A stretch of 64,000 bases of DNA. It comes from Sphagnum compactum (Eukaryota). Location: the NCBI GenBank assembly GCA_965153455.1, contig OZ234494.1, positions 2,728,001 through 2,792,000 of the forward strand. The letters run 5' to 3'. The translations under genes were made by a program, and so were the position numbers. The notes below the pieces were generated by a model. The model was given only the letters and a program-made list of their open reading frames with translations. It was not told the origin of the DNA and searched no databases. The first letter of the stretch is position 1. Each line of letters opens with the position of its first letter. This document shows positions 3,501 through 63,587 of this stretch, piece after piece.

Positions 3501-6051
3501 CAGATGTTGGGCTTTAAAGACGACCTCATGCATGAACTCATGCGCTTATACATCAGCATTCACAGGTTATCTTTTAGTCTCTGTTTTTTTTCAAACCTTC
3601 CTTCCTTCCTGAAATCTTTGTTATGCCAAGATTTGTGGAACCCAAAGTTTTACAGAATGTGGCTGTCGACCTGAGCAGTAGGGATGTGTTGCTGCTGGCA
3701 GTGATCATGAGGGAGGGAATGTGAGTGCTCACACAGTACATCTTGTAAGTGCAGTATTTCCTTTCAGTCTTTGTTCAGCGCTGTCAGCTAGATGCCATTG
3801 CTTGTCCATCCATTCATTCATTCTGGGTTGTCAGGGTTCATTTTCCTCTTGAACCCTTTCCTTTCTTGAGCAATTTTGAAAACTGTGGCTTTTTTATTCT
3901 CAGGTTGGAAGTGCTCTGTCAGACCCATATCTCTCATTTGCAGCTGGAATCAATGGCTTAGCTGGTCCTCTTCATGGCCTTGCAAACCAGGTACCTTTCA
4001 AAGAAGTCTATGATATCATGTGATTGTCAGTCTTTTGACAACTCCTAGTGGGCATGCTTGGCTTGATCATTTGCAGAGGTTCCATGGCTGACTATTTATT
4101 GAGCAGACCATGCCATCCTGGTCACTCATATGTGCAAAGGTGGCAGGAAGTTCTGAGGTGGATTCAAGAAGTGGTGGCAGAGATTGGGAGTGATGTCACC
4201 GCTGAACAGCTTTCTGAATATGTGCACAAAACCTTGAAAAGTGGCAAGGTAAAGGAAGCAAACCTCCTAACATGGATATAATGGACAAAAATCCTTGAAA
4301 GCTAGTTTCCCACGAAGGAGTAGATCAAGGAACATTTTGCATAGAGCGTGGATTCGCTTCTTTGCAACCAAAGCTTAAATCTTTTGCAGCCATTCAATCT
4401 TGCTATGGATTTCCTTGGTGCTGATCTCTTTGTCCTGACAGTTAGAAATGTGTTACAATCAGCAGTGCTGGAGCAAGTCACATAGAGAATCCATTTGTGT
4501 CCTTGTTTGTATCTGTGTGTGAGGAAGGACTAGATGCTACAGGTGAAAGACTCCCCATTCACAGATGGAGGACTCTGACATAATCCAGTTGGGTCATGGG
4601 TGTAGGTGGTGCCTGGCTTTGGGCATGCAGTACTGAGAAAGACGGATCCTCGTTATATGTGCCAGCGTGAATTTGCCCTCAAGCATCTTCCAAATGATCC
4701 CTTGTTCAAAATGGTTGGTGCAATGCTCCTCCCTCCTCATCCACCATTTTTGTTTGAAAAAAGCCGTGACTTGACTGAACAAGAGTATGGATTATTTCAT
4801 GAGCAAATTGGTCCAAGGAGCTCCATGTTTTGAATTTGGTCCCAATGTTTTTTTTTCCTGGATGGTTTTTCTTCCTCAGGTCTCAAAGTTGTTCGAGGTT
4901 GTTCCACCAATTTTGCTCGCAGGTGGCAAGGTAAATCATCAAACTGCATAGAGACTTGACTTTATGTGGTGTTGGTCCCATGTTCTCATGGTTACTCTAT
5001 TGCTGCACAAGGTGCTATAGCTGAAGGCAAGAATGCAGTAGGGTCTAAAATGACCCAAAGGTGCCTCCTTTGTCCTGAATTGATAGTCCTGAAAACGGAC
5101 TGATGAGCTGATGTTGCAAATTGGGATTGGTTGGTTTCTCTGTTTTTAGGATTTAGGGTTTAGGTTTTAGGGTCATACCCTAAACCCAAAACCCTCTAGT
5201 TACTTTGCGTGAACTATGCTTAAAAGCACTCATTACACAGGCCTTAACAAGTTCTTTTGGGTACTCTACACTCAATTAGATTCATTTCAAATTTATCAGT
5301 GTTACAATGTTATATTTAAAACATTCTAAAAAACACGTCACAAATTTTCAACATCAACTTACTTTATCACCTTAAAGCTTGCAAAATAAAAACTTACAAA
5401 ATAAGGATCAATTACACTTGGGAGTGTGCCATTTTAGTGTGACTACACAGCCCAACAGTGAATTTTTTTTGAGTGGGAGTGCAGGTGAAGAACCCATACC
5501 CCAATGTGGATGCACACAGTGGTGTCTTACTTCAATACTTTGGCCTGAGAGAACAGAAGTAAGTTCTGCACTAGAACCAAATGGTTTCTAACTAAAAACT
5601 TTCTCCTTCAGTATTGTGTTTCAAGAGAGGATTATGCAGCAGCACAGACCCCTGTTGTTTATCGGCTCTGGTGGGTATATGTCTAATCTACTTGGGTGTT
5701 GCTTACTGCAGCTACTATACAGTGCTGTTCGGAGTGGCTAGATCCTTGGGTGTACTTTCTCAGGTAGGTTGTAAAACTGGTTTGAAATGGTCATGTTCTG
5801 CACATTTCAAGTCTGGAAGAAGATGATGAAAGGCAGTTACAGTGACAATTACACTGCTGGAATTTATTTATTTTTGTCAAAAAAGAGAATTAATTCCATC
5901 TGTGATTTGGGAGTATTTGTTTAACTGCCTGTTTTACCCTTTGTTGAATATGCAGCTGATTTGGGACCGGGCGCTGGGCCTTCCAATTGAGAGACCCAAG
6001 AGTATGACTTTTGAATACATTGAAAATTACTGCAAGTCCAAGGTTGCCTAA
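569..6051 (+). CDS. CSY4: Mitochondrial citrate synthase (CSY4/CSY5-like); start exon lies upstream of the window
   Basis: Manually spliced exons: 569-661, 808-849, 1053-1118, 1339-1404, 1727-1840, 2301-2364, 2673-2755, 2931-2980, 3121-3198, 3437-3565, 3702-3744, 3904-3990, 4147-4248, 4606-4713, 4880-4930, 5485-5558, 5712-5763, 5956-6051. They give a continuous frame with [78 protein letters not shown] and ERPKS. The Arg/Ala/Thr-rich first exon resembles a mitochondrial presequence. Confidence 0.96.
5145..5195. repeat. Short head-to-head interstitial telomere-like repeat inside a citrate synthase intron
   Basis: agggtttaggttttagggt (5155-5173), then cat, then accctaaacccaaaaccct (5177-5195); the arms match 17/19 as an inverted repeat. 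Confidence 0.75.
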
Positions 6052-8240: not shown

Positions 8241-9963
8241 TTGATGTGGGTAGGGAATGTAAGTGGTTACTAGGTAGGTAGGTAGGTAGGTAGGTAAGGC
8301 AATTGGTGACTAGTCTAGTAAGCGGTAGGTATATGCGTGTGTGTGGATGGTTAGTACATAGTTAACAATTTGTGGTTAGGTAAGGGACAGAAAACTGTAC
8401 TTCTTTTTTCTGTCCACATTTCATCCATCCATTCATTCATCCATCCATCCTGCATGGTGCTCTAGTGGGTGCTGGTTTTTAGATAACTTGTAAGTTTGTT
8501 GTTGTCGTCATGTTGTGATTAATTGTGCCTGGCATGTTCTCTACTTTGGGAGCTGAACTCGGTCATTAAAATTCTCTCATGTTGCATTTACTAGTATATA
8601 TATCTGACAAATTGGGTTTCATGCAAGAGTCGCCTAATCCTTTTCCCAATTGGGCCATAGTTGCAGCAAAAAAAGCACAGAACTGACATGAAAAATTTGT
8701 CATCTATTTTTTTTTTCAAAAGAAAATTTGTTGAAAAAGATGGATAACCTAGACCTGACATATTATCGTTAAGTTAACGTTGAAAATTGGGGGTAAAACA
8801 CGACATAAATTTCTAGTAGAAATGGATGGAATCACAAAGTTTACCTCACACATGTGTATGTCATGACCATCGGTTTTGTTTTTAGGGTTTAGGGCTTAGG
8901 GTTTACGAAAAATATTAAAAGAGTCGTGCTATCATTTGGCAAACTACTAACTAGAACCTATTGTCTAAACACCAACCACCGTTGATTTCAAGAAGGAAAA
9001 AAACCTGAAAAATCTAGTAGTGACTTTAGCCCATTTTCCTCACAAAAATCCTTTGTATGTATGAGTCCCATTGGATTTTCTTTTCTCACCAAGTGACAAA
9101 ATTTTGCCTGAACAAAGCAAGCATCTACCAAACATGGCTTATTCAACATGAATTTGTGTCGAATTTTATGTAAGGTAAACCTAATGATGTTGTTGTGCTT
9201 TGTGCCGTATACAATACAATACAATACAATACAATAATAACCCTTATATAGTTTGCTACCCTCTTGATTATTATTATTTCTTTTCACCTCTTAGCTCCCT
9301 AAGTTTTGCATGAGATGTGTGGCAAACTATAATAACCCATGATGATTTTAGCCTAGTTTTGCAATTTGAATATTTTCAACCCATTTTGAAATTTGCTTAA
9401 GTTTTTAAATGTGATTTGCTACAATTCACCTATGTTTTTTTTTATAAAAAAAAAAGTTCTTTTTTGCGATACAAGAATTACAATCCTTTGGGTTTTTATT
9501 CCAATCCTAGTCTCTTTCTCATCAGCTAAACCTGTGTTGGGTTGTTAGCTGCTTGTACCACAAGCTATGTTGAAATGCAGTTTTGGGATGAAAATGTTTT
9601 GCTAAAATTTTTGCACAATTTCACATGGGAACCAAGAATGGTGTTTTTTTTGGTTTTGCTTAATTGCTTTTAATGTATTTCTTAATATTGTTGGAATCTG
9701 GACATCAACATTTTTCTACTTCCCGAAAGCCCAAATTTATTTATTTATTTATTTATTTATTCTTTTTGGGTAAATAACAGGACTTTACTCAGCACAGAAG
9801 AAAACAAAGCCCAAAATTTTCATGGTGTCATTGTGCACTATGAATTGAATTGAATTCTTGTTAGACACCAAAAGGAACACTTCTGGTGAAACTATCCACC
9901 AAGCACAAATATTTTCCCAGCAAAAAAAAGAAAAAAAAAGATTTTTTTTTTTTGCACTCATTA

Positions 9964-34547: not shown

Positions 34548-34736
34548 AGATGAAAGATAAATGATCAGGTCTCCTGCAATACTGAGACCCGTTAGATAGT
34601 TGGAAAATGTTCATAGAATTTACATCTCTCTCTTTTTCTCTCTCTCTCTCTCTCTCTCTCTGTGTCTGCAAAGTCTGCCATCCTAAATTGGCAAAGTTCT
34701 TCACTTAAAAGACGAGCTCGGTCTCCAAGATCACAA

Positions 34737-34751
34737 AACCCTAAACCCTAA
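34737..34751 (+). promoter_or_regulatory. Telo-box motifs (AAACCCTA) upstream of the cpRNP gene
   Basis: aaaccctaaacccta lies in a CpG-rich promoter-like segment; TAGGGTT also occurs at ~34799 and ~34870. Telo-boxes are established elements of plant genes for the translation/RNA machinery. Confidence 0.4.
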
Positions 34752-42400: not shown

Positions 42401-44700
42401 TGTTTCAAAATTTTAGAACTTCAAAAGTCCTTTACCACATACAAATGGGTTATAATGTACACGATGTATTGAAAAAAGTTATAACTTAGAGTATAATAAA
42501 ACTAAAGAATGTGAAAGTTTAATTTTTGGTAATGATTTCAAATGTTGATCATTTTTCAAGATGAAACATTCAATTTATAAGGAATCTACACCATTTTAAA
42601 GAAGAAAAAAAGTGATGCATTGGGGAAAATTTTAATATTTTTTAGAACAAGTTAAAAAAAATTCATTAAAAAATTCATTTGCATGTAAAGATTATTTCTG
42701 GGAAAAAAAACTTGCAATCCTTTTCCAAAATAATCCATTTGGCTTCTTGTTACATATTTTGACCTAGTAGTGTATAAGAGTTAGAAGATAAACTTAAGGA
42801 CATATAAATAAAACCATTGAATGTGATTTGCAAGAGACACTTCCACTTTGTGGTAACCCAATCCTTGAAAGGATGGTTTTAAAGTCATCTAATGATTGTG
42901 ATGACAATTCATAAATTCTTATGGATGCTATAAGAAAATACAAGTGAGGCTGAATAATTAACAAAATGTGAATTAAAAAAGTTGGTGCATATTGATGGTC
43001 CCTTGCAAATTATGAATTTAATCTTTAATGATCGAGCAAAAAATGCCATTGGAGGAAGCATATTGGATTCCAATGATCACCAATTGGCCAAGGTGTATGT
43101 TGATGAGGACAATACTGTAGAAACTAGATGTATGTAGCAACAAAACAAAGGCAAATGCTTGCACTATTTCAACTAGAAGAAATGGAAGATGGAATTTTTT
43201 ACCAAGTTTTTGAGCCGTGTATTAAAAATAATAAAAATAGATTGGTGGATGGAAATCAAATCCAAGATCAAAATAAATATAGAATTAACCTTAGAGGCTA
43301 AAAAACAAAGGCAACTGCTAGCATGATTTGATGATGTGTTCACTTAGCACAAAGGTGAATTATGATGTCATAAAGTGGGAGAATGTACAATAAAAACCCA
43401 AAGGTTTTTGCCATGCCAAAGAACTCCAAACCAATTATCATTTTGGGAGGAGATTGAGGTGGAAAAACAAATTGATGCCTTAGTGATGTTGGGTAAGATG
43501 AGGCCCATCAACTCATAATAAACATGTTGTGTTTCTTTAATAATAAAGGAAGTGGTAGTCACCACTTTTGTGGTGATTGTCATCCACAAAATCAACAAAC
43601 AAGAAGGGATGCATTTCCAATGCTATTAATTGACAATGTGTTGAATGCAATTGGGCAGGTTTGAGTGATTTTTTTTGCATTAGACCTAGAATTTGGGCTC
43701 TAGCACATTAAGATGGCTCCTAAAGACATAAAGAAAATTCTTTTGATAATCAAATCAAGGCTTATTGATTGGACAGTAATGCCATTTGGGTTGAAAAACA
43801 GAATTAGTACCTTTTTTCAAACTATAAGAAAAGTGTTCAAAAAGTACATGGACAAATTTTTAAAGGTGTTCTTCAATGATTTCGACCACAACCAATATTG
43901 GGCTAAACATTTAAAAGCACATCAAATGTGTGTTATAGAAGTTAAGGGAAGTCAATCTTAAGCATAACCTTAACAAATGTAGTTTTGCAAAGAAATCCAT
44001 TAGTTTCTGAGGTCATGTGATTAATAAAGAAGGAACCCAACCTAACCCTAGGAAAATAAAAATTAGAATTGAATTTCATGTGCCAACCATTGCTACTAAT
44101 GTTAGAGCTTTCTTGGGATTATTTGAATATTACAAACCTACGTCAAAGGTTATGTGCACATTTTGTTGTTTTTTTGTTTGAGTTTTAAAACAATACTCGA
44201 ATTTTTATCTAGAGTCTTGATTATTAAAAAGCCTTGAAACTATTGAAAGATGTTGCAATTAAACCCTAAACCCTAATCAAACCCTAAGCCTCTAATTTCA
44301 TTAAGATGTTTATTTTGGATGTAGATTGATACTCTTGGGGAGTGGGAGCCATTACATCAGAGGAGAGAATAAGTGAATATGTTATTACTTATGCAAGCAA
44401 GGAGCTTTCCCAAGTACATTCCGAGGTGATTCCATTGTATGGAAGGAAAGTGTTATGCATTCATATGGGGGATTTTCCATTTCCAAGAATTTTTGTATAG
44501 AACCCACTTCACAATACCTGTAAATCACACGTTGCTTGAATGGTTGGCAATAATGCCTAATGCATATGGAAAACATGAGATGTGAATAACTATGCTACAT
44601 GATTAGATTTTCAAAAATTGTCCATTGTGTAAGGTCAAGGCACACCAATTCAAATGCACTTAGTTCGAATTCAATGGACAAGTTTGCTAGGAATTTCAAG
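39480..44700 (+). mobile_element. Heavily decayed Ty3/Gypsy LTR retrotransposon internal region with AT-rich interruptions
   Basis: Remnants in Gypsy order: gag (DVIDWVEHFEM..KAKDWYKR, ~39530-39650), Cys-rich knuckle-like remnant (~40970-41090), protease (LVDIGAS..DDLLGLDFFIKIG, 41501-41881), RT (WTVMPFGLKN..FLKVFFNDF, 43713-43961) and RNase H (FILDVD..GVGA..ITYASK, ~44310-44560). Many stops and frameshifts; LTRs not identified. Confidence 0.8.
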
Positions 44701-47502: not shown

Positions 47503-50500
47503 CTTGCCTTCCGCCCACCTTCCGAAACCTCCCCTTATTCTCCCAAAGGTTCAAACCCTAGGATCGGTCCATTCTTGAAGATGAAAGAGGAACCCAAAAA
47601 AAAAGAAAAGCCCGCATAGAAAAAACGTCTTCTCTGCAACCGTTGCAAATCAATCTTGGCGCAAAGAAGAAGAAGAAGCACTGAGACACTCTATCTCCGG
47701 ATCAACGCTCTAATAAGGAAGCATCAGACCAGAAACCCTAAATGCAAACCCTAGTTTGGCATATGCAGGAAGCAAAAGTAGCTTCCCACATCGAATCACA
47801 TCCTCTACCGAAAATCGCGAGAATCTTCTTCTCAAACATTGAGCAAGCAAAATCCATTCCAGAACTTAGATTATTGCCGACCCAATCTCAATCGTCAAAT
47901 CCTTGAGTAATATTTGCGAGCGGCCCCATGAGCTGCAGAGCTAGATTTTTTTCCTTGTACAAAACCGATGGAAAACAATAGTCATGGAATGAAACAAAAG
48001 GATCTGCTTCTGCTGCTACTGCTGCGTACTAAATAATCTCGCATTCCGAATGTATGTCGATCAGCCGTTAATGATCAAAAGCGAAGGTGGAGAGCGATGA
48101 TCGATCTCGTGTCGCAGCGTCGCTGGTGCAATTGCGCGCGCGCAAGAAAGTGAAAGTGCGGCAGTCTCCAAGTGACGATGTCGCAAGGGCGTTCCTTGGT
48201 CGCAAAGGGGACGTTTCTCCGGGTCGTTCAGGGCCGGGTGGGGGTTGGGGCCGTGTTCGCTGAGAGAGGGAACTGATCACAGAGAGTAAGTTCCCAAGCG
48301 AGGGGAACAGAACCCCAGACCCGGAAAGTTTCTTCCCCCCCTAGACCCGGAAATCTTTGACCCGGGAATTTTTCCTCTGGGGTCTGGTAGCAGGGATGGA
48401 TGAAAGGGAGGGCCCCACTTGTCCTTTCATCTTGTCCTTACAATTGGTCTTTTTTTCAGTTTTGTTTTTGGGTTTTTTTTTGGGTCAGTGCATTGTAAGG
48501 CGCTTTTTTTGGTGTTTTTTTTTTCCTTGAACTAACTATTTATATTTATATTCTATTGGTTTTTTCTTGCTATTTTGGTTTCTTTTTAAAAAATTTAAAA
48601 TATTATTATTATTTATAAATTTTATTGCATTATCAATGCCACTATTGGTGCTATAGGAAGGTCTTTTGCAAGTTGTCCCTCCTACTACTTGCCTTTTCCT
48701 TGGTAAACATTATCAATTGTTATCGATCGTTGGTTACTAATGTGTTTGTTTTTTCTTGTTACTCATTTGTCATGTTTGTTGTTGTTTGGTTGCTTCTTTT
48801 AGGTGGTGAGCTCACCCTTGTTCCTTTTCTTATTTTGCATTTTGAATTGTAAAATTACAAGTTTTTTTCATCAAATTTAGTTCACATTATTTGTAAAAAA
48901 TCATTGTTTTAAATAAAGGCATAAAATAGCCTTCCTTTTATCTTTTGTGTTGTACATTTTCATGTTTGCATTTCACTCGTGTAACAATTACACATGATGC
49001 ACCCACAAAGACTTGCCACAAGATGTTGGGGGTACATTCTTTTATATACGATGGATTATCTAAAAACTTTGGTGCATTCCTTATCTCCATGGATTGAAAC
49101 AAGGTTTCATGAAAATTCTAAGATAATACTAGGACAAGCTTTTCAAGTTGAATTTACAAATACATCAAACTTACACAAACCAAGCAGGAAAATAATAATG
49201 CAACATTTTAGGTCAAAATGATACATAGACAAGCCATAAACTCACATGGCTCACCACAGATTGGATTTAAGAAAATCACCATTTCTTTAATAATATTTTA
49301 TGCTACCCCATAGTGACAAAATTAAATCAACAATTTGGGGGGGGGGGGGGGAGGGGGAGGGACACTTAAGTTTGGGATCTATGTGCTTCAAATGGCCATT
49401 TTTAGGGAGGTATTAGATAATTATCCAACCTATTTTTTATCACCCTATTATGATTTAAATTTTTTTAAAATATATATTAAAGTCACCTTATATTAATTAT
49501 AATCCAATATTTTAGATTATTACATACTCTATATTAGAATTAAATCAATTATTTGAATAATATGTACCCTATTTTTAACTAATTAACTTATAATTTCTAC
49601 CCAAATTAAAATTATAACAAGAAAGTGAAAAGTTAATGTTTATAACGAATGTTAATCAAAACTCAAAGGTATATTATAACGAGTTTGAAAGAATGTTTAA
49701 GGTTGTCACAACCCTTCTTTTGAAGGTGCAACAAAAGACAAAAACAAACATGGACCTAGGCAAAAACAAAGTGATTCAACTTGGCTTCAAATTTTGGATA
49801 AGGTCTAAATTAGGGCTTCAAACAAAGTTTCATAATGTAAACGAAGGCATTGACTTTTCTTATAAGTGAAGGAGAGTGTCGCAACCTTAACTAGAATGTC
49901 CAACCAATTCCTTAAATGGACAACAATTTTTATTTTCTTTAAGCTTAATTTTATGAACTTCCAAAATGATGGGATTCATAATTGAACATTTTCAACTTTC
50001 AAAACTCCCATTTGAGAATGTTGAGAAAAATTTTTGATCCCGAGTGGGGACATTAGTAAAAAAAGTAGAAACATCCTAAAACACCATTCTTGAATTACAA
50101 TAAGTCGACAATGCTAGAATGTTGTGTCAAATATAACATGAAGCTAACAAGACTTGTTAAAAACAAATCAAGCCATTGCCAAAAGTCGGATATTTTATTT
50201 TGAAATTGAAAACTACATGAGTAAAAAATAAGGTCCCCATATATTGGTTGTTGAACAAAAAAAATTCAATTTCTTCTATAATAGGATTAATTTTATTCTA
50301 AAAATCCAAACATATATATATATTATAAAGTATGCATTAGTAATGGAATTAAAAAATGGACAAAAGACTTTACAAATTGGTTGTTAGTAGGTTATTACAT
50401 GAGGAACACACCTTATAATGAGTTTTGGCATGGTTCAAGATTTTGGCCAACGAACAATGTGCAATATGTGCAAACATAGAAGACAACATTATTTGCATAG

Positions 50501-56327: not shown

Positions 56328-59300
56328 TTAAGTGCATTGTCCAGGAACAAATCCCACTTGGTAGTTCACGTTATCATATACCACTCGGAAACCTTGTTGC
56401 TGAACATTCCCGATGATAGAAGGCCCTGTGGTCCCAGCGAATGCAAAGCAATAGGTGTTGGAATTATCAACTGGAATGAGGTAATTGCTTGCTGGGAGAT
56501 CCATGTCTGCGCCGTTTTGGAAATGCAGGGTTACTGTTGGGACATCCACGGTTGTCATTCCAACAAGGTCATAACAAGTATCGAAAAGAGAGAATCCTGT
56601 TGTCAATGTTAATTTCCTCGTTGCTGCACGGAATGCATCCCTCATTGCTATGTAAGCAGCATTAGCTAGTCGAGTGACTGAAGTGCCTGAATCGATGATG
56701 ACACCACCATCACCACTGGCATCCAGCTGGAAAACATGTGAAGGAATGGAGAGGAGGTCACCCCCGACACTAATGCCTGTCATTTGCAGGTAGTAGAATG
56801 TGGAGATCTTTGCATTCTTCACCTGCGGAGTAAACGTCACACCTGCTGGAACTGCAGCATTTCCAAAGATGAGAAGTGATCTGTCGGTGGTGTCTGTTTC
56901 ACGGTCTGTAAGGCAGTAAGAAAATTTGTCCCCGATTGCAGCACCCACTTGGCTGGGAAAAGATAGAGGACCTTTGCCTAGGCCCAAAAGCCCTGCAGCT
57001 CCAACAAAGTAGCCTTCATTGTCATGTCCACAACCCATCGGGATTGAATTCAGAACAACTTGGCCACCAGCAGTTGTGGCAGAGTCGAGTGTCACAGTGT
57101 CAGTTGAAAAATCTCCCAGAGTGAAAGATCCATCACCATAATCAACCTGTGACATGACCAGAAGCAAAACCATTAAGTCACTTGGGTGTATGAATGCAAC
57201 AAGCAAAGAACTCAAAGACAGTAGAGAGGTGGTGGCAGTCTGCACCACCTTGACAAACACAAAAAATGGTGTTTTCTTCACCTTCTAGAGGACATCCCAC
57301 ATGTATTTCATTGTTGACATGACAATGACCACCTCAGGGTTGTGTTGGTTTCTTGCTAATCTACTCTCTTCTGTGATTTTGGAGCTTTAGTGCAAGTGAT
57401 CTGTACAAGAACTGCAAGTGAGCAACAGAAGGTGGGTGGGCAGGCGCACACAAACTGACACATCCATCCATCCCTCCCAATCTTTGTTGCAATAAGGCAC
57501 ATCACTCATGGACGACCCACATCCAGCTGTGAAAAAGGGCTTGAAAGAATCCAAGCAGATGATCAACATCCTATTACCACATTCCCATTGACCTGGGGTG
57601 CAGCGCACAGAAGATGGAAAGAAGGGATTGACAGAATCCAAGCAGATGATTGACTTATCATGCCAGAAAGAATTCCAAACCTAATCTCCTTGTTCAATGA
57701 CCACACTGAAGACTAGGGTAAACAGGCTTTCGAAAAATAAAGTCACAAGTCAAGCTATAGTAGCATGTGTGTAGCACCACCCAGACCTGACAAAACATGT
57801 ACAAATCTTGAGCTCCAACAAAAGATGCAAGGGTTTGGAGCACAAGATTTTGGGGGGCATGTCTTACTGCACAACATACCCACCCGAGACTCATGTACAA
57901 AACGAATAGTACATTGCAGATGCAACTGTAAGAGCAGCTCCAGGTGACCCTGGAAATCAAAAGTCAGAACATGCCAGTTTGGCTCAGCAAAATGGTTTTG
58001 GCGCTGCATTTTTCCACAGTTTGCTGAGCCTGGCAAAAGGCATAGCAAAGCCTAAAGAGAAGAGTGTAATAAATATGATCTGCCTGCTGCTCCTTGTTTC
58101 TGATTTGCCAATCATAATGATTGGTGCAGGTGGGTTGCTATTAGTAGTAGTCTCCCACCTATTTGCAGTCCCAGTTTTAGTTTTATGGGTGGGGTTGGAA
58201 AAAAGTAAATAACTAAATTTGGATGTGAGAAATATTTTTGCGGGGACGGATACTGAGCACTGCTGGAGCTGCTCGAAGAGGATGCCCCAATTTGCACAGA
58301 GAGAGAATGAACTTGATGGATGCACAGGTGAACACACCAACAAACAAACCTGGTAGAGGCAGTCACTTTGTTGACAGCCACTGATATCCAGATCCAAGCA
58401 GAGCTTGGAACCGCATCGGACAGTAGCATAAGTGGATGAAGCAAGAGGGTTGAACACAGGACCAGCTTGCTGGTAACAGTTATCACATGGAGAGCATTGG
58501 AGCCACAAAATGTCACTGCCAGTGTCGACCACAAGGTAAGTGGATTTTGCAGGTGTGCCGATTGAAAGTTGAACAAAATACTCCCCACTTCCCATGGTGA
58601 GACCCGACACAACTGGTGCTTGAAAATCACTGCTGCCTGCACCAGCCTCCTCATGCTGCTGCTGCTGCTGCTGCTGCTGGAATAGGGTTTGGAATTTGGC
58701 TTCAGGCAACATCCCGTTCACCATTCTCTGGATATGGGCATGGATGCCAAGCACCCGGATGTGGTCCCTTGATAAGCTTTCTTTCATCAGCTGAGATCTT
58801 GTTGCATTGACTGGCCTGAATGGTGATGAGGGTGCATACCTGCAAATGGGTACACTCCCAGTGAGATTTTCTTTCAGGAAATGATGATCTCAAGAAGAAG
58901 CATGGCTGCCACTGGAGCCAGAGGAAATGCAATGCATACATGCATGCAGTTTGTGAAGAAAGTTCTACTCGTACTGCAACAGCAAAAGAAGAAAAAGAAG
59001 AAGAAGAAGAAGAAGAAGAAGAAGAAACAACAACAACAACAACACCCACCCAATGATGAGAACCCTAGACTTGTGACCAGCTGCTGCACCTGTGCATGAG
59101 GTTCGCTTGTACGCCATCACCATGGCCTGTTGTGTGTGTTTGCAGCCGATCATGGACAGCGGAGGTCGAAGCTCTGGGCAAGAATTCAGACATCCCCCGT
59201 GATGCCGGAACGAAGCTTCTTCTATTATCCTCCCGCCGACTTGTAGTCTTCTCTGTAACTTGAATGTCCAGTCTCTGGTAAGTGTACGACCCTGGAGCTG

Positions 59301-59448
59301 CAAAGAACTGCTGTCTGGCCGACGAAGACACCGGCTCAAAGACACTAACCGTGATCAATATTGCAAGCAGCATCCCAACTACACAAGTAGAAGAACCACC
59401 ACCACCGCCACCACCACGGCTCCTGCAGCTTCGAATGTCTCTTCCCAT
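56328..59448 (-). CDS. A1-family aspartic protease (nepenthesin/ASPG1-like), 555 aa, 3 exons
   Basis: Exons 59448-59090, 58839-58350, 57146-56328 (GT-AG, in frame). Hydrophobic signal segment (VVGMLLAILITVSV), propeptide LMHR-YAPSSPF, GSGEYF, catalytic DTGS and DSGT, Cys-rich NAP insert (WLQCSPCDNCY), GCGHDNEG..GLLGLG, IIGNVQQQ. Confidence 0.95.
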
Positions 59449-59463
59449 TCTGATCAACGTCTG

Positions 59464-59503
<40 letters not shown>

Positions 59504-59535
59504 CCAACACGTATCTGCAGCTCCTCTTCTTGATC

Positions 59536-59911
59536 TAGAGCTCCCAAATCCCACAACTCAAAACAACAAAAAACTGCTGCAGCAACTGAACTCTAAAAAC
59601 CCCACAACTCAAAACAACAAAACTGCTGCAGCTACAACAGGTCCAGAACTCCACAACTAGCTGACAACAACAAAACTGCTGCAGCAGACGAACTCTAGAG
59701 CTCCACAACTAACTAACTAACTAATAAACAACAACAACAACAACAAAGCTACTGCTGCAACAGCTGAACAAGACTCTGGAGCTCTAACACTACTAACAAC
59801 AACATAAGAGCTGTGGCTGCAGCTGAACAACTCCAGTCTGAGCTCCAACACTACTAACAACAACAACAACAACAACACAAGAGCAACTGCAGCTGAAAAA
59901 CTCCAGAGCTC
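59536..59911. repeat. ~6 degenerate 50-80-bp units in the presumed 5' leader of the aspartic protease
   Basis: Recurrent gagctcc-acaact-(aac)n-actgctgcagc-gaactc modules. Confidence 0.7.
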
Positions 59912-60047
59912 ATCATCCACTTCCTTCTTCTTCTTCTTCTTCTTCTTCTTGTTTTTCTCCTCCTCCTCCTCCTCCTCCTCTCAAGTCTAGTAGTAGCTGT
60001 GCCTGCATAACTGCAAAACCAAAATAGACTTGTGTGCACTACTAGAG

Positions 60048-60053
60048 TTTATA
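60048..60053 (-). promoter_or_regulatory. Candidate TATA box of the aspartic protease gene
   Basis: TATAAA on the minus strand at the boundary between AT-rich upstream DNA and the GA-rich leader, ~600 nt from the ATG. Confidence 0.4.
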
Positions 60054-60796
60054 ATCTTCTTGTTGGGAAGTCATTACTTCTTTGCATAAAATTTAATGAG
60101 AACCTTCTGCAAAAATAAAAGAATATTAATAATTTAAAAAAACTGCAATTAATTTTTTTCCATAATTAAATAATTAAATGCAATCTTTATTTATTTATTT
60201 ATTTAGTTAATATTTCCTTCTTTCTTTCTTTCTTTTCTAAACAGCTGCAATTTTGGGGGAGTTTGCACCTACATACAATTAATTAATTAACTAACTAATT
60301 AATTAATTAATTAATGCAGATCACACATGAGGACCATGAGCGAGGAGTTAGGAAGGGAGGAGAGAGTTGTGGTAGAGAGAGAGAGAGAGAGAGAGAGAAA
60401 GAGGTAGGTTAGGTTAAGTTAGGTGTGATTAGGTTTTGGTTTGGGCGGGGTTGGGTGCAGAGTTTTAAGGAAATGGCTGTTTTCACATGATACACTTGTC
60501 AGGTCCCCCCACTTCTTCCTCCTCCTCCTCTTCCTCCTGAGTTTATTTATTTATATATTATTTATTTATTTATTTATTTATTTTCCTGAGTCCTCTTTTA
60601 CATAAACTAGTCTGTACCTACATATGAAAACAAGCAAAACACAATTTTTTTTTAAAATTAAAAAAAAAAATTCTATACATAACAAACTTAAGTTTCTTTA
60701 TGTGTAGTAGTGCGTTACTTAGTACTACCAACCATTCATTAATTTTACTCGGTAGGTAGGTAGGTAGGTAGGTACCCACTTTAATTTTTCAGCGGT

Positions 60797-60835
60797 GATA
60801 CCCGGAGGGTATCAAGTGGGTACCCTCCGGGTATC
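60797..60835. repeat. Perfect 15-bp GC-rich hairpin
   Basis: GATACCCGGAGGGTA, a 9-nt loop, then TACCCTCCGGGTATC. Confidence 0.9.
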
Positions 60836-60912
60836 TTGGGGAAAAAACCCACGCAAAAATAGGCTCTGCCTCAGTTGGGCACTACTTATTTTCGGAACAC
60901 CTTGCTCCTCGA

Positions 60913-61071
60913 GTTTAGGGTTTAGGGTTTTTTTTTAATTTTTGGGAACGCCTTGCTCCTCCTCGGGGTTTAGGCTTCTCCACTATTTTTGAAGGGTTTT
61001 AGGGTTTTGGGAAACTGAGGGTTTATTAGGGTTTAGGGAATCTAAGGGTTTATTAGGGTTTAGGCCCTAGG
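60913..61071 (+). repeat. Degenerate interstitial telomeric (TTTAGGG) tract
   Basis: Multiple tttagggtttaggg and agggtttattagggtttagg blocks. Confidence 0.8.
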
Positions 61072-61263
61072 GAGATCTGTGAGAAGGTAAAACTGATCAC
61101 CTAAAACACTCTCACATGGGGGAAGGTGATCATGCTCCTCACAGGTGGGCTAATTGCCATTTAAGATTGACAAGTGACCAACCCTTGGTTTAGAAATGGA
61201 CCCCTTGGGCCCAATCATTAGGGTTTCAATCCAATCAAACATTGCCACATGGGTGTAATGGGT

Positions 61264-62019
61264 TACTAGACTAGGGTTAATAGAGAGAGAGACACTCACT
61301 CATTATTACTCCTACTAATAAGAAAGAGGGATATATAGAGGGACCAAAAATCAACCAACAAACATGTTCATAAACCCAACAAAAACCTTGTGAGCCCATG
61401 GTTTAGGGTTTAGGGTTTATGAACATGGGCTCACAAGGTTTTGGGTTTATGAACATAATCACTAGATTAGGGTTAATAGTGAGAGACTGATTATTACTCC
61501 TAATAATAATAGTAATAGAGGCATGTATAGAGGGACCCAAAATCAACAAGCATATATGTTCATAAACCCAACAAAAACCTTGTGAGCCCATGGTTTAGGG
61601 TTTAGGGTTTACAAGGCTTTTGTTGGGTTTATGAACATGCTTGTTGATAAAGGGACCCAAAATCAACAAGCATGTTCATAAACCCAACAAAAACCTTGTG
61701 AGCCCATGGTTTAGGGTTTAGGGTTTACAAGGCTTTTTGTTGGGTTTATGAACATGCTTGTTGGTTGATTTTTGGTCCGTCTATACATCCCTCTTTATTA
61801 TTATTAGTAGGAGTAATAATAAGTCTCTCTCTATTAACCCTAGTCTAGTGACTATGTTCATAAACCCAACAAAAACCTTGTGAGCCCATGGTTTAGGGTT
61901 TAGGGTTCACAAGGCTTTTTGTTGGGTTTATGAACATGCTTGTTGGTTGATTTTTGGTCCCTCTATACATCCCTCTTTATTATTAGTAGGAGTAATAAAT
62001 AATAAGTCTCTCTCTATTA
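61264..62019. repeat. Mirror-symmetric array of four hairpins with (TTTAGGG)2 loops and ~100-bp spacers
   Basis: The arm atgttcataaacccaacaaaaaccttgtgagcccatg occurs four times. Each is followed by gtttagggtttagggtt and then a reverse complement of the arm. The spacer is forward at 61264 and 61457 and reversed at ~61757 and ~61938. Confidence 0.92.
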
Positions 62020-63587
62020 GAAGTACCAACCACAAGAGGCTTTCAGACAACACACACTAACTAGGTTGGCTACCTAGTGCTAACCAAGGGTAGGTGGGTG
62101 GTTGGGTTAGTTGTCAGCAGATTTGATGGTAGCCAAAAAAAGCTGTGTGTGTAGTTAATGCCTCTCTGCCAAAGTTGAAAATTTGGTCATGAATAATTTT
62201 TTTAAGATAGGCCTCCAAATTATTAAATGGCAAAATGTTTTAATTGGGTGTCCAATCCATGTGCACCAAGTGTTCCCCCCTATTTTTTTTTGTCAAGCAA
62301 TAATCCCAAAACCTTTTTGGACAATATGAATTTAAATAAATAAATAACATACCTTGATTTTATTATTATTGTAATACCAGGTAAAATATAAAGCTGTATA
62401 TATATATATATATCTATTCTTGCCCCTTGGGCATATATTGGAGTTTTGTAGGCTACTTGAGACCCAGGGCTTTTTTTTTTTTCCTTTTTTCTTTCCCCCC
62501 AATTTTGTGATGTAGCCAAACCTGGGGGATCGTCCACAAGAAGATTTAGCCAAATTGGGCTATAACCAAAATAAATTCAGGACTTTCAAAGAAATTATTA
62601 AGGTGAAACAATAAACCTATAAGAAAAGAACACCGTAATAAATTCTTAATGGTTCTTAATGCCAATATCTTAAGAGAAAACATAATAATTAAATATTTGA
62701 CATGAAAGTGCCGAACTTGCTAGGCTACTAAATATATACATTTATTCTTGCATTGCATGTTAATGTGTTTTTATTTTCAAAGGAGGATATTAAGTGGACT
62801 ATCATAAATAAATAAATAAATAAACTATATTGGGGTGTCATTGCAAACATAGTAGAAACCGAAACACATATTTGCTCTACATTATACACTTAGACTCACA
62901 CATGAATGGGGTCGAGATTTTTATGAAGTAAGTAATTTTCCCCAATTAAACTTAAAAAATGACCGTGCATATAGTAATGCATATCCTAAATGCCGTTTTT
63001 CTTTTCACCAAAATTAAGGCTATTTTAGGATATGCAATATGCACACCATTTAAGTTTTAATCGGGGAAATTTTAGGGCTTTTTTAAAAAGGTTTTTCACA
63101 CTAAGTGAAAAAAAAAAAAATCCCAAAATGTTCCTGTTTTTGGTCGAAAACTTGAAACTTTGTATAATAATACCAAAACAAAGCCAATTGCAATAACTTA
63201 TCATTTCTTCATATAAATCAATCGCACAGACTTGTTTGTCAGAGACTTTGTCAATTGGGTTTTGTGTTTCCACTTCAGTCTTCTTCCTCTTTGGTTTGGT
63301 TTTTCCCCCATTGCTTGCGACATTATTGTTAGTTTCATTAAAGGCAATAATAGCATCCATCCAAACATCCAAGTCCAAACAATCTTGTCACTGAAATCAC
63401 GGAGTGTGCTGATTGATGCACTGCACTGCACTTTGAGAGAGAGAGAGAGAAAGAGAGATGGTGCAAAAATCTTCCTCTGTCATGTCATATATACTACTTA
63501 CACACATAATTTTCTTTCTGTACGTAAACCCAAAAAAATCTTTGAAAAGCTTTAATTGGACATGCAGCCCGATCAATCAACGACCAC

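Follow-up and report, generated by a model that had tools for sequence, protein, structure and literature searches.

Direct and inverted copies of one hairpin unit with telomere-type loops in Sphagnum compactum: a case for local growth

In the 64-kb stretch of Sphagnum compactum DNA analysed here (the window, in whose coordinates all positions are given), about 760 bases consist of direct and inverted copies of one unit of about 190 bases, in which four hairpins carry telomere-type tracts in their loops. The observation is real and far beyond chance, and the reading towards which we lean is that of a complex repeat that grew locally, and that is neither a record of repeated telomerase action nor, probably, a mobile element. 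If this reading is true, a promoter-type telomere motif has been multiplied passively by local duplication, and co-oriented loops inside a palindrome can arise with no participation of telomerase; this would be a caution for the interpretation of telomere-like motifs and would call for no new mechanism. In a search of titles and the first parts of abstracts, with most subscription journals lying outside it, no literature was found on an array of hairpins capped by telomere repeats.

Anatomy of the array

The array is built on four copies of a 37-nt arm (ATGTTCAT..GAGCCCATG), which are free of mismatches, lie all on the + strand and start at 61364, 61556, 61672 and 61854; shuffled sequence yields no match to this arm (0/100 shuffles). 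Directly 3' of every arm copy stands GTTTAGGGTTTAGGGTT, with starts at 61401, 61593, 61709 and 61891, the fourth tract ending in GGGTTC. An earlier note on this DNA had described four hairpins with telomere-repeat loops, whose tracts are co-oriented and begin after the same ...GAGCCCATG junction, and this is what is found at all four copies, together with the GGGTTTA microhomology that it had pointed out, a sequence common to tract and arm. The layout that it had proposed, with two forward spacers alternating with hairpins and the spacers inverted in the second half, is likewise recovered: the unit order along the array is S H S H H S' H S', with spacers of about 100 nt in forward orientation (S1 and S2) and in reverse orientation (S3 and S4), unit periods of 192-196 and 182, and two to three head-to-tail units per side. 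Other claims have to be qualified. The large palindrome placed about ~61650 stands in that three inverted-repeat diagonals of the repeat finder, I1 (100 nt, 92%), I3 (75 nt, 92%) and I6 (44 nt, 93%), lie on one anti-diagonal with its centre at ~61655, but a join produced by direct duplication of ~119 bp is the better interpretation of that centre. Similarly, the description of four alike hairpins and spacers is right for the last three hairpins (H2-H4), but the first one (H1) has a full reverse right arm, and S4 is short of about 17 nt.

On its left side, the array opens with S1 (61262-61363, + strand; alignment A1 and segment table), followed by H1 (61364-61456, + strand), which is composed of the arm at 61364-61400, the tract at 61401-61418, the letters ATGAA and a right arm at 61424-61456. 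This right arm reproduces the whole left arm in reverse, CATGGGCTC included, though with 4 nt less, and the loop measures 23 nt, which makes H1 unlike H2-H4. The H1 tract passes straight into GGGTTTATGAACAT, with which the right arm ends. S2 (61457-61555, + strand), the most diverged of the spacers, is joined to H1 by the junction ATGAACAT-AATCA-CTAGATTAGGG and leads to H2 (61556-61638, + strand; arm 61556-61592, tract 61593-61610, right arm 61611-61638). The centre (61639-61671, + strand; alignment A2 and diagonal I6) contains GCTTGTTGAT, AAAGGGACCCAAA and ATCAACAAGC, and is at the same time the loop region of a hairpin with 44-nt arms made of the right arm of H2 and the left arm of H3. H3 (61672-61755, + strand; arm 61672-61708, tract 61709-61726, right arm 61727-61755) copies H2 in direct orientation and is followed by the full-length S3 (61756-61853, - strand; alignments and segment table). 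H4 (61854-61937, + strand; arm 61854-61890, tract 61891-61908, right arm 61909-61937) is in turn a direct copy of H3, and S4 (61938-62019, - strand), which lacks its distal ~17 nt, forms the right end of the array. In H2-H4 the left arm, whose last letters are GAGCCCATG, is free of bulges, and the right arm has a C bulge and no matching CATGGGCTC.

As DNA, the single hairpins fold at -33.5 to -42 kcal/mol (z from -9.8 to -12.6), with 0/200 shuffles as good; the values are -34.9 kcal/mol for H1 (z -10.8), -34.4 kcal/mol for H2 (z -10.3) and -42 kcal/mol for H3 (z -12.6), and the central hairpin at 61605-61705 reaches -42.6 kcal/mol (z -12.7). When 776 nt comprising the whole array are folded as RNA, they form one long hairpin of -477.6 kcal/mol (z -45.7; 0/20 shuffles as good).

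The sequence to the left of the array is part of the picture. Positions 61150-61261 (+ strand) are probably a decayed older unit, hereafter unit 0, with the remnant of a spacer end, a pair of site II and telo-box motifs, and the remnant of a right arm abutting S1. The segment 61150-61264 is colinear with 61330-61460 (spacer end plus H1) with a semi-global score of 14.0, which is reached by 0/500 shuffles preserving base composition only (mean 5.3, sd 2.2, maximum 13.0); for two control segments of equal length, 80/500 and 76/500 shuffles reach the score. A local-alignment test of the same relationship is marginal (17-20/500). The motif pair, TGGGCCCAATCATTAGGGTTT at 61206-61226, resembles the string of the loops, TGAGCCCATGGTTTAGGGTTT, at 76% (family D6), and its telo-box adjoins the site II with no hairpin around them. 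Further to the left, at 60913-61064, there is a zone of telomere-like motifs with the G-strand always on the + strand, which comprises (TTTAGGG)2.6 with no mismatch at 60913-60930 and, at 60992-61064, 2.8 copies of a telomere-like unit of 27 bp. Judging from these alignments, the array looks like a short tandem array decaying leftwards.

Copy relationships and proposed order of events

Aligned in direct orientation over 83-85 nt, H2-H4 have identities of 98.8-100% (H2 against H3: 83 matches, 0 mismatches and 1 gap; H3 against H4: 84 matches and 1 mismatch), and they have their asymmetries in common, namely the C bulge and a 14-nt gap on the right. The spacers are less uniform, with identities of 86.2% for S1/S2, 90.2% for S2/S3, 91.4% for S1/S4, 93.2% for S2/S4, 93.5% for S1/S3 and 98.7% for S3/S4. 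Between units 2 and 3, mismatches amount to 0/83 in the hairpins and to 9/92 in the spacers (Fisher p = 0.0035), a difference that could also be a product of selection on the hairpin. In alignment A2, ATAGAGGGACCC...H2...GCTTGTTG is directly followed by ATAAAGGGACCC...H3...GCTTGTTG, i.e., about 61527-61646 is repeated from about 61646 on, and H2 equals H3 because these ~119 bp are duplicated directly. A reading of the centre as that of a fold-back with a 13-nt spacer was given up in favour of this duplication, which also explains why H2 and H3 are the same. A second direct relationship is seen on the right side, where Tandem Repeats Finder reports a period of 182 with 1.9 copies at 95% over 61672-62019, corresponding to H3 and S3' followed by H4 and S4' in direct order.

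Direct copying is not sufficient for the whole array. The junction between H1 and S2 has its mirror image in the junction between S3' and H4 at 61845-61861 (I3, 75 nt, 92%; alignment A1), so an inversion step is needed, and independent direct duplications on each side with no inversion are ruled out by these mirrored junctions. Inverted arms and mirrored internal junctions are thus found together at one locus, as in an inverted duplication. Since the tracts lie inside units that were copied from each other, they have inherited the fixed ...GAGCCCATG junction, and no more than a single seeding event has to be postulated for all of them. Their common orientation follows from the two direct duplications, which account for three of the tracts, H1 deriving from the older forward array.

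From these relationships we infer the following order of events, including the fold-back step. The building block would be a unit of about 190 bp, formed by a spacer of ~100 nt and then a hairpin, which would first have been present as a short head-to-tail array (the decayed unit 0, S1-H1 and S2-H2). A reverse copy of part of this forward array would then have arisen, in the simplest case via a fold-back at the last hairpin, bringing with it the reversed spacers and the mirrored hairpin-to-spacer junction; according to the available part of PMC7467729, fold-back inversions arise via single-strand hairpins. Later, a direct duplication of ~119 bp around the central hairpin would have produced H3, and a copy with a 182-bp period, or a gene conversion, of H3 and S3 onto H4 and S4 would have overwritten the core of H4. 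Because the last steps would be direct, the four tracts point one way and start after the same base. Against a simple version of this history speaks the fact that other spacer pairs are closer than the mirror pairs S1/S4 (91.4%) and S2/S3 (90.2%) and that S2 is an outlier; the spacer identities fit no simple order or tree, so that additional conversion or uneven decay has to be assumed for a history that is drawn from four short copies with no outgroup sequence.

A close comparison is with fold-back duplications, and with complex tandem or inverted repeats of local extent, generated by template switching during replication. The array has in common with them the long inverted arms, the short centre and the mirrored internal junction, as well as the growth by direct duplications and the confinement of everything to a single locus; in contrast to them, its arms embed small hairpins whose cores are all co-oriented, which requires direct duplication or conversion after the inversion, and its mode of formation is deduced here from the sequence. 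Another way to change the orientation of a loop is its flipping between the arms, as in the recurrent small hairpin-loop inversions of chloroplast non-coding DNA described in the accessible parts of PMC3123225 and PMC2903610. There, as here, a loop flanked by arms is a labile segment that can be flipped, so that orientation taken alone is weak evidence of history; unlike there, the arm asymmetries of the array travel together with the loop, and direct duplications suffice. As the sole cause of the co-orientation, flipping was discarded: four free loops would agree in 1/8 of cases (our own reckoning), the process is not needed, and it leaves the arm asymmetries common to the hairpins unexplained.

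Likeness to mobile elements

The main rival to local growth is a nested mobile element, a reading that we consider unlikely. In it, a non-autonomous fold-back or CACTA-like transposon at 61460-61850 (S2 H2 H3 S3') would lie inside an outer copy (S1 H1 ... H4 S4'), and the nesting would account for the mirrored junctions at once. CACTA elements have CACTA termini and a target-site duplication of 3 bp. The inner segment begins with CACTAG, ends with CTAGTG, has an inverted terminal region of ~137 nt and lies between AAT and ACT, which agree at 2/3 positions, as an imperfect duplication of 3 bp; the outer copy starts with TACTAG and its right end is missing. On this outer level no target-site duplication is present, given that the 10 nt to the left of 61262 (GTGTAATGGG) and those to the right of 62019 (GAAGTACCAA) do not match, nor is there one when the left end is set at 61278. 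A 16-nt direct repeat (60719 and 62017; 88%) was also considered as a wider target-site duplication and set aside, since by our own estimate ~0.5 such repeats are expected by chance in 2 kb. The left flank, moreover, resembles a further decayed unit, as expected of a tandem array and not of host DNA, which speaks against an insertion into unrelated sequence, and the identities of S1/S2 (86%) and S3/S4 (98.7%) are unlike those of two copies of one family.

The likeness extends to fold-back transposons in general (e.g., FB of Drosophila and Tetris), in which long terminal inverted repeats often contain tandem sub-repeats. FARE of Arabidopsis is a fold-back transposon of this kind. The arms of the array (S1-H1-S2 and S3'-H4-S4') have the same construction, with two tandem units of ~190 bp each, a size not far from the ~220-bp repeats in the long terminal inverted repeats of Tetris, and the array is also nearly devoid of a middle domain and has nothing coding, as judged against the available part of PMC4079207. 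The same source gives a target-site duplication of 8-10 bp for Tetris, which the array does not show; it differs furthermore in that no other copies are seen, in the truncation of its right end and in a left flank that continues as a decayed unit. A relationship to Replitrons was rejected, because their terminal features (short direct repeats and one 11-bp palindrome) are unlike the array and the string 'telomer' is absent from the part of PMC10288648 that was accessible.

The number of copies bears on the nested element as well. No other copy of spacer or arm is found in the remaining 63 kb of the window, no second spacer or arm locus was seen, and a metagenome scan with a 19-nt word of the arm returned 12 loci that share only 19-25 nt with it, i.e., chance matches; the index of scanned stretches has 0 look-alikes. 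Contigs from public sequencing runs point in the same direction. Those of two runs, X1 and X2, which come from two independent studies under the same organism label, were placed on the stretch at an identity of at least 88%; in X1, the unique contigs of the array have depths of 41.5, 43.5 and 46.7, against 34-46 in the flanks, which is the single-copy level, and a true high-copy repeat at 62408-62574 has in the same run a depth of 6239 against ~40. A satellite would look different as well, the array having two to three units per side and unique parts at single-copy depth. The earlier note had offered a fold-back element or satellite built on a telomere seed as one of its explanations: this comes close to the local fold-back and duplicated repeat described above, and a large high-copy array was not encountered. 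On the other hand, all three DNA runs reach 3-12 times single-copy depth in the bins on the array, a surplus that local copies and contigs with the motif alone explain incompletely; this excess leaves room for diverged copies, and there may be a diverged low-copy family elsewhere in the genome. If such a dispersed family exists, it would be a new fold-back element of mosses.

Telomere-type motifs, function and integrity of the locus

The motif in the loops is itself a familiar one. Each loop has two overlapping telo-boxes (AAACCCTA, minus strand) and, 4 nt on, the site II motif TGGGCT, and telo-box and site II occur together at the four loops and at 61206-61226. Telo-box 8-mers number 29 in the window against ~2.5 expected (~10x), 13 of them within 60.9-61.9 kb, and the 14-mer of the tract is found, with at most one mismatch, 16 times in the 64 kb against 0.01 expected; the combination of a telo-box with a site II within 40 nt is restricted to the four loops and to positions 61219 and 33679. 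In the window, tracts of 2-3 repeats occur often, mostly with no hairpin. At the tract borders, X1 shows 18-30 loose contig ends per edge with a consensus agreement of 0.40-0.41 (among the matches listed, 24 of 373 loose-end rows), and this divergence of contigs exactly at the tract edges indicates that many other loci have the bare motif alone. The (TTTAGGG)2-3 tract is one of the ordinary, short interstitial telomere motifs that this genome contains. TTTAGGG telomeres are found in bryophytes, Sphagnum among them, according to the accessible part of PMC10856949.

Does such a motif cluster have a function at this place? Telo box, site II (TGGGCY) and their joint occurrence in plant promoters are treated in the available part of PMC3022908, and that of PMC12616469 reports that TRB proteins bind telo-boxes, with the motif peaking in Physcomitrium at -50 to 0 of start sites. 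The array is the same as such promoter modules in having AAACCCTA twice per loop with TGGGCT 4 nt off, and this pairing recurs 180 bp to its left; it differs from them in that the modules known from the accessible parts of these sources lie within about 100 bp of the start site and not in hairpin loops, whereas that of the array is amplified four-fold and is 1.8-2.5 kb from the nearest recognised ATG. The neighbour in question, encoded on the minus strand at 56328-58889, is an aspartic protease of the nepenthesin type with the domains TAXi_N (5e-23 and 1.1e-22), TAXi_C (7.5e-36) and Asp (7.9e-12), whose ATG is likely near 59.45 kb according to the reading of its open reading frame. The position of the array ~1.8 kb upstream of the protease ATG, as first noted, agrees with this predicted start, the array being 1.8-2.5 kb from it and the gene lying on the minus strand.

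That the stretch is a maintained functional element, either as a telo-box and site II cluster recruiting TRB/TCP-type proteins for the neighbouring gene or as a hairpin-RNA gene yielding small RNAs, appears to us quite improbable; it is a reading that concerns present function and is compatible with an origin by local duplication. The greater likeness of the hairpin cores relative to the spacers would fit it, but recent duplication explains the identity of the cores with no need of selection. It could likewise draw on the two telo-boxes and the site II of each loop and on the repetition of their pairing at 61206-61226, but the distance of 1.8-2.5 kb to the protease ATG is well beyond the ~100 bp of start sites within which telo-boxes act, as far as the accessible parts of PMC12616469 and PMC3022908 go. 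A hairpin-RNA gene would be in line with the ~370-bp duplex into which the whole stretch would fold as RNA, and with the presence of at least part of the array in a relative with ~1% flank divergence. In a polyA RNA run (~12% of its reads examined), 31 reads were placed and none of them lies wholly on the stretch; a fraction of 0.97 of these reads continue into unlike sequence and so come from other loci, including 16 from a locus elsewhere that has 61395-61427 in common with the array, apart from one change, and diverges on both sides. The depth on the protease exon is only ~0.4, which means that this run says little. In Rfam, a search of 58-64 kb with E up to 1 returned no family at threshold and hence no match to a known microRNA or hairpin RNA, the best one being MIR837 with 48.5 bits against a gathering score of 117, on both strands of the central hairpin, as a generic hairpin match. 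If the loops were bound or processed, the array would qualify as a structured cluster of telo-boxes or as a hairpin-RNA gene of young age.

No evidence of function was seen in these data, and the stretch is probably functionless. For the locally grown repeat no function need be assumed, and cruciform formation or replication trouble, a double-stranded RNA of ~370 bp if the stretch were transcribed, and a cluster of TRB binding sites would be possible by-products, consequences of the sequence and not findings. Of the effects that the earlier note had named, cruciforms, hairpin siRNAs and binding by telomere-repeat proteins would each be conceivable.

The earlier note had also suggested that the array could record telomerase addition at a fixed end. 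Repeated addition of this kind is not supported, as the tracts are copies of one unit (H2-H4 being 98.8-100% identical) and their four junctions, copied from one, are not independent events. A version in which telomerase added about two repeats after ...GAGCCCATG at a broken end, followed by fold-back priming and amplification, strikes us as very unlikely. The GGGTTTA common to tract and arm and the run of the H1 tract into GGGTTTATGAACAT would suit it, and the available part of PMC3022908 proposes that single telo-boxes of plants arose in a telomerase-based way. Nevertheless, fold-back copying would, by our reasoning, invert the earlier loops, yet the tracts are co-oriented; tracts of 2-3 repeats are common in the window and mostly hairpin-free; and the older unit 0 already pairs telo-box with site II with no hairpin. 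The related organism has at least the right-hand unit. There may have been at most one ancestral seeding event, of the type that the accessible text of PMC3022908 proposes for telo-boxes generally.

Equally remote is a more elaborate idea, in which the hairpin core would be a selected device: extruded hairpins would expose the double telo-box and the site II as single-stranded G-rich loops on one strand, neighbouring loops would pair via guanine tetrads or load TRB-type proteins to give a silencer or boundary upstream of the protease, and selection would have kept the orientation and the near-identity of the cores.

Finally, although the region is made of near-identical inverted and direct repeats and no contig among the matches listed spans the array or covers its centre, a collapsed or chimeric join of repeats in the assembly is hardly credible, because the contigs of two studies reproduce most of the unique junctions with no difference and a related organism has matching pieces. 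Among the matches listed (24 of 1905 pieces), contigs with zero differences cover 60783-61393, 61390-61584 and 61749-61882 in X1, and 60863-61336, 61390-61584 and 61931-62224 in X2, with none over the centre at 61585-61748 or over 61883-61930. They support both outer boundaries (the right one in X2 only), the H1-S2-H2 segment and, in X1 only, the S3-H4 junction. Over ~1470 bases aligned in the flank at 58400-60173, 16 letters are different in the related organism (X9), a divergence of ~1%, and its depth on 61072-61238 is almost nil. As to the array, it has a 94-nt contig on 61562-61648 with one 4-nt insertion and another of 438 nt, which shows 11 differing letters and 28 gaps, on 61921-62347, matches from which it follows that the structure, at least in part, predates the split of these two close relatives.

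A possible expressed locus with a core related to a hairpin loop

In the spacer/hairpin array at 61262-62019, whose four hairpins each carry a telomere-type tract in the loop, the loop region of the first hairpin (61395-61427) shares approximately 33 nt with 16 reads, from 10 start places, of the polyA RNA run X22. The common stretch comprises CCCATG, the tract and then GTGAACATG, with an A>G change at 61419 that is also found in one contig of each of the three DNA runs, and beyond it, on both sides, the reads continue into unrelated sequence. The reads come from a different locus in this organism, for which they are the only view, and a core related to this loop region may sit in an expressed gene elsewhere.

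Telomere-type motifs to the left of the array and across the window

Telomere-like repeats are also present at 60913-61064, where TTTAGGG forms an exact tract of 2.6 copies and a telomere-like unit of 27 bp recurs in tandem for 2.8 copies with 87% matches, both with the G strand on the forward strand, i.e., in the same orientation as the tracts of the array loops. In the window as a whole, the 8-mer of the telo-box, a plant promoter-type telomere motif present twice in each array loop, occurs 29 times versus the approximately 2.5 expected (about 10-fold over-representation), and doublets or triplets of it lie at 8881-8901, 34736-34750, 44261-44286 and 47733-47753. At 5145-5195, telomere-like repeats are arranged head-to-head as a mini-palindrome, in which about four G-strand units are followed by TCATA and about three C-strand units (19-nt arms separated by 3 nt, with 89% complementarity); a telomere motif may have folded back here on a small scale, or the palindrome may be the relic of an end-to-end join.

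Repeats on both sides of the array

Further to the left, none of the four runs shows depth over the stretch 60237-60737; since this stretch is of low complexity (TTAA-type, GA and TTTA repeats), the gap probably reflects the skipping of repeats in the depth computation and not absent DNA. A (GGTA)6 microsatellite (60751-60774) adjoins two overlapping perfect inverted repeats: one of 11 nt (60771-60781 / 60814-60824) and one of 15 nt (GATACCCGGAGGGTA / TACCCTCCGGGTATC, 9-nt spacer, 60797-60835).

To the right of the array lies a short, very high-copy repeat (62408-62574, core at approximately 62503-62573). In the three DNA runs, the depths of its contigs add up to 6239, 599 and 7263, compared with approximately 40, 6 and 35 for single-copy flank. 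Represented by some 90-100 variant contigs with loose ends on both sides, it is probably a piece of an abundant mobile element.
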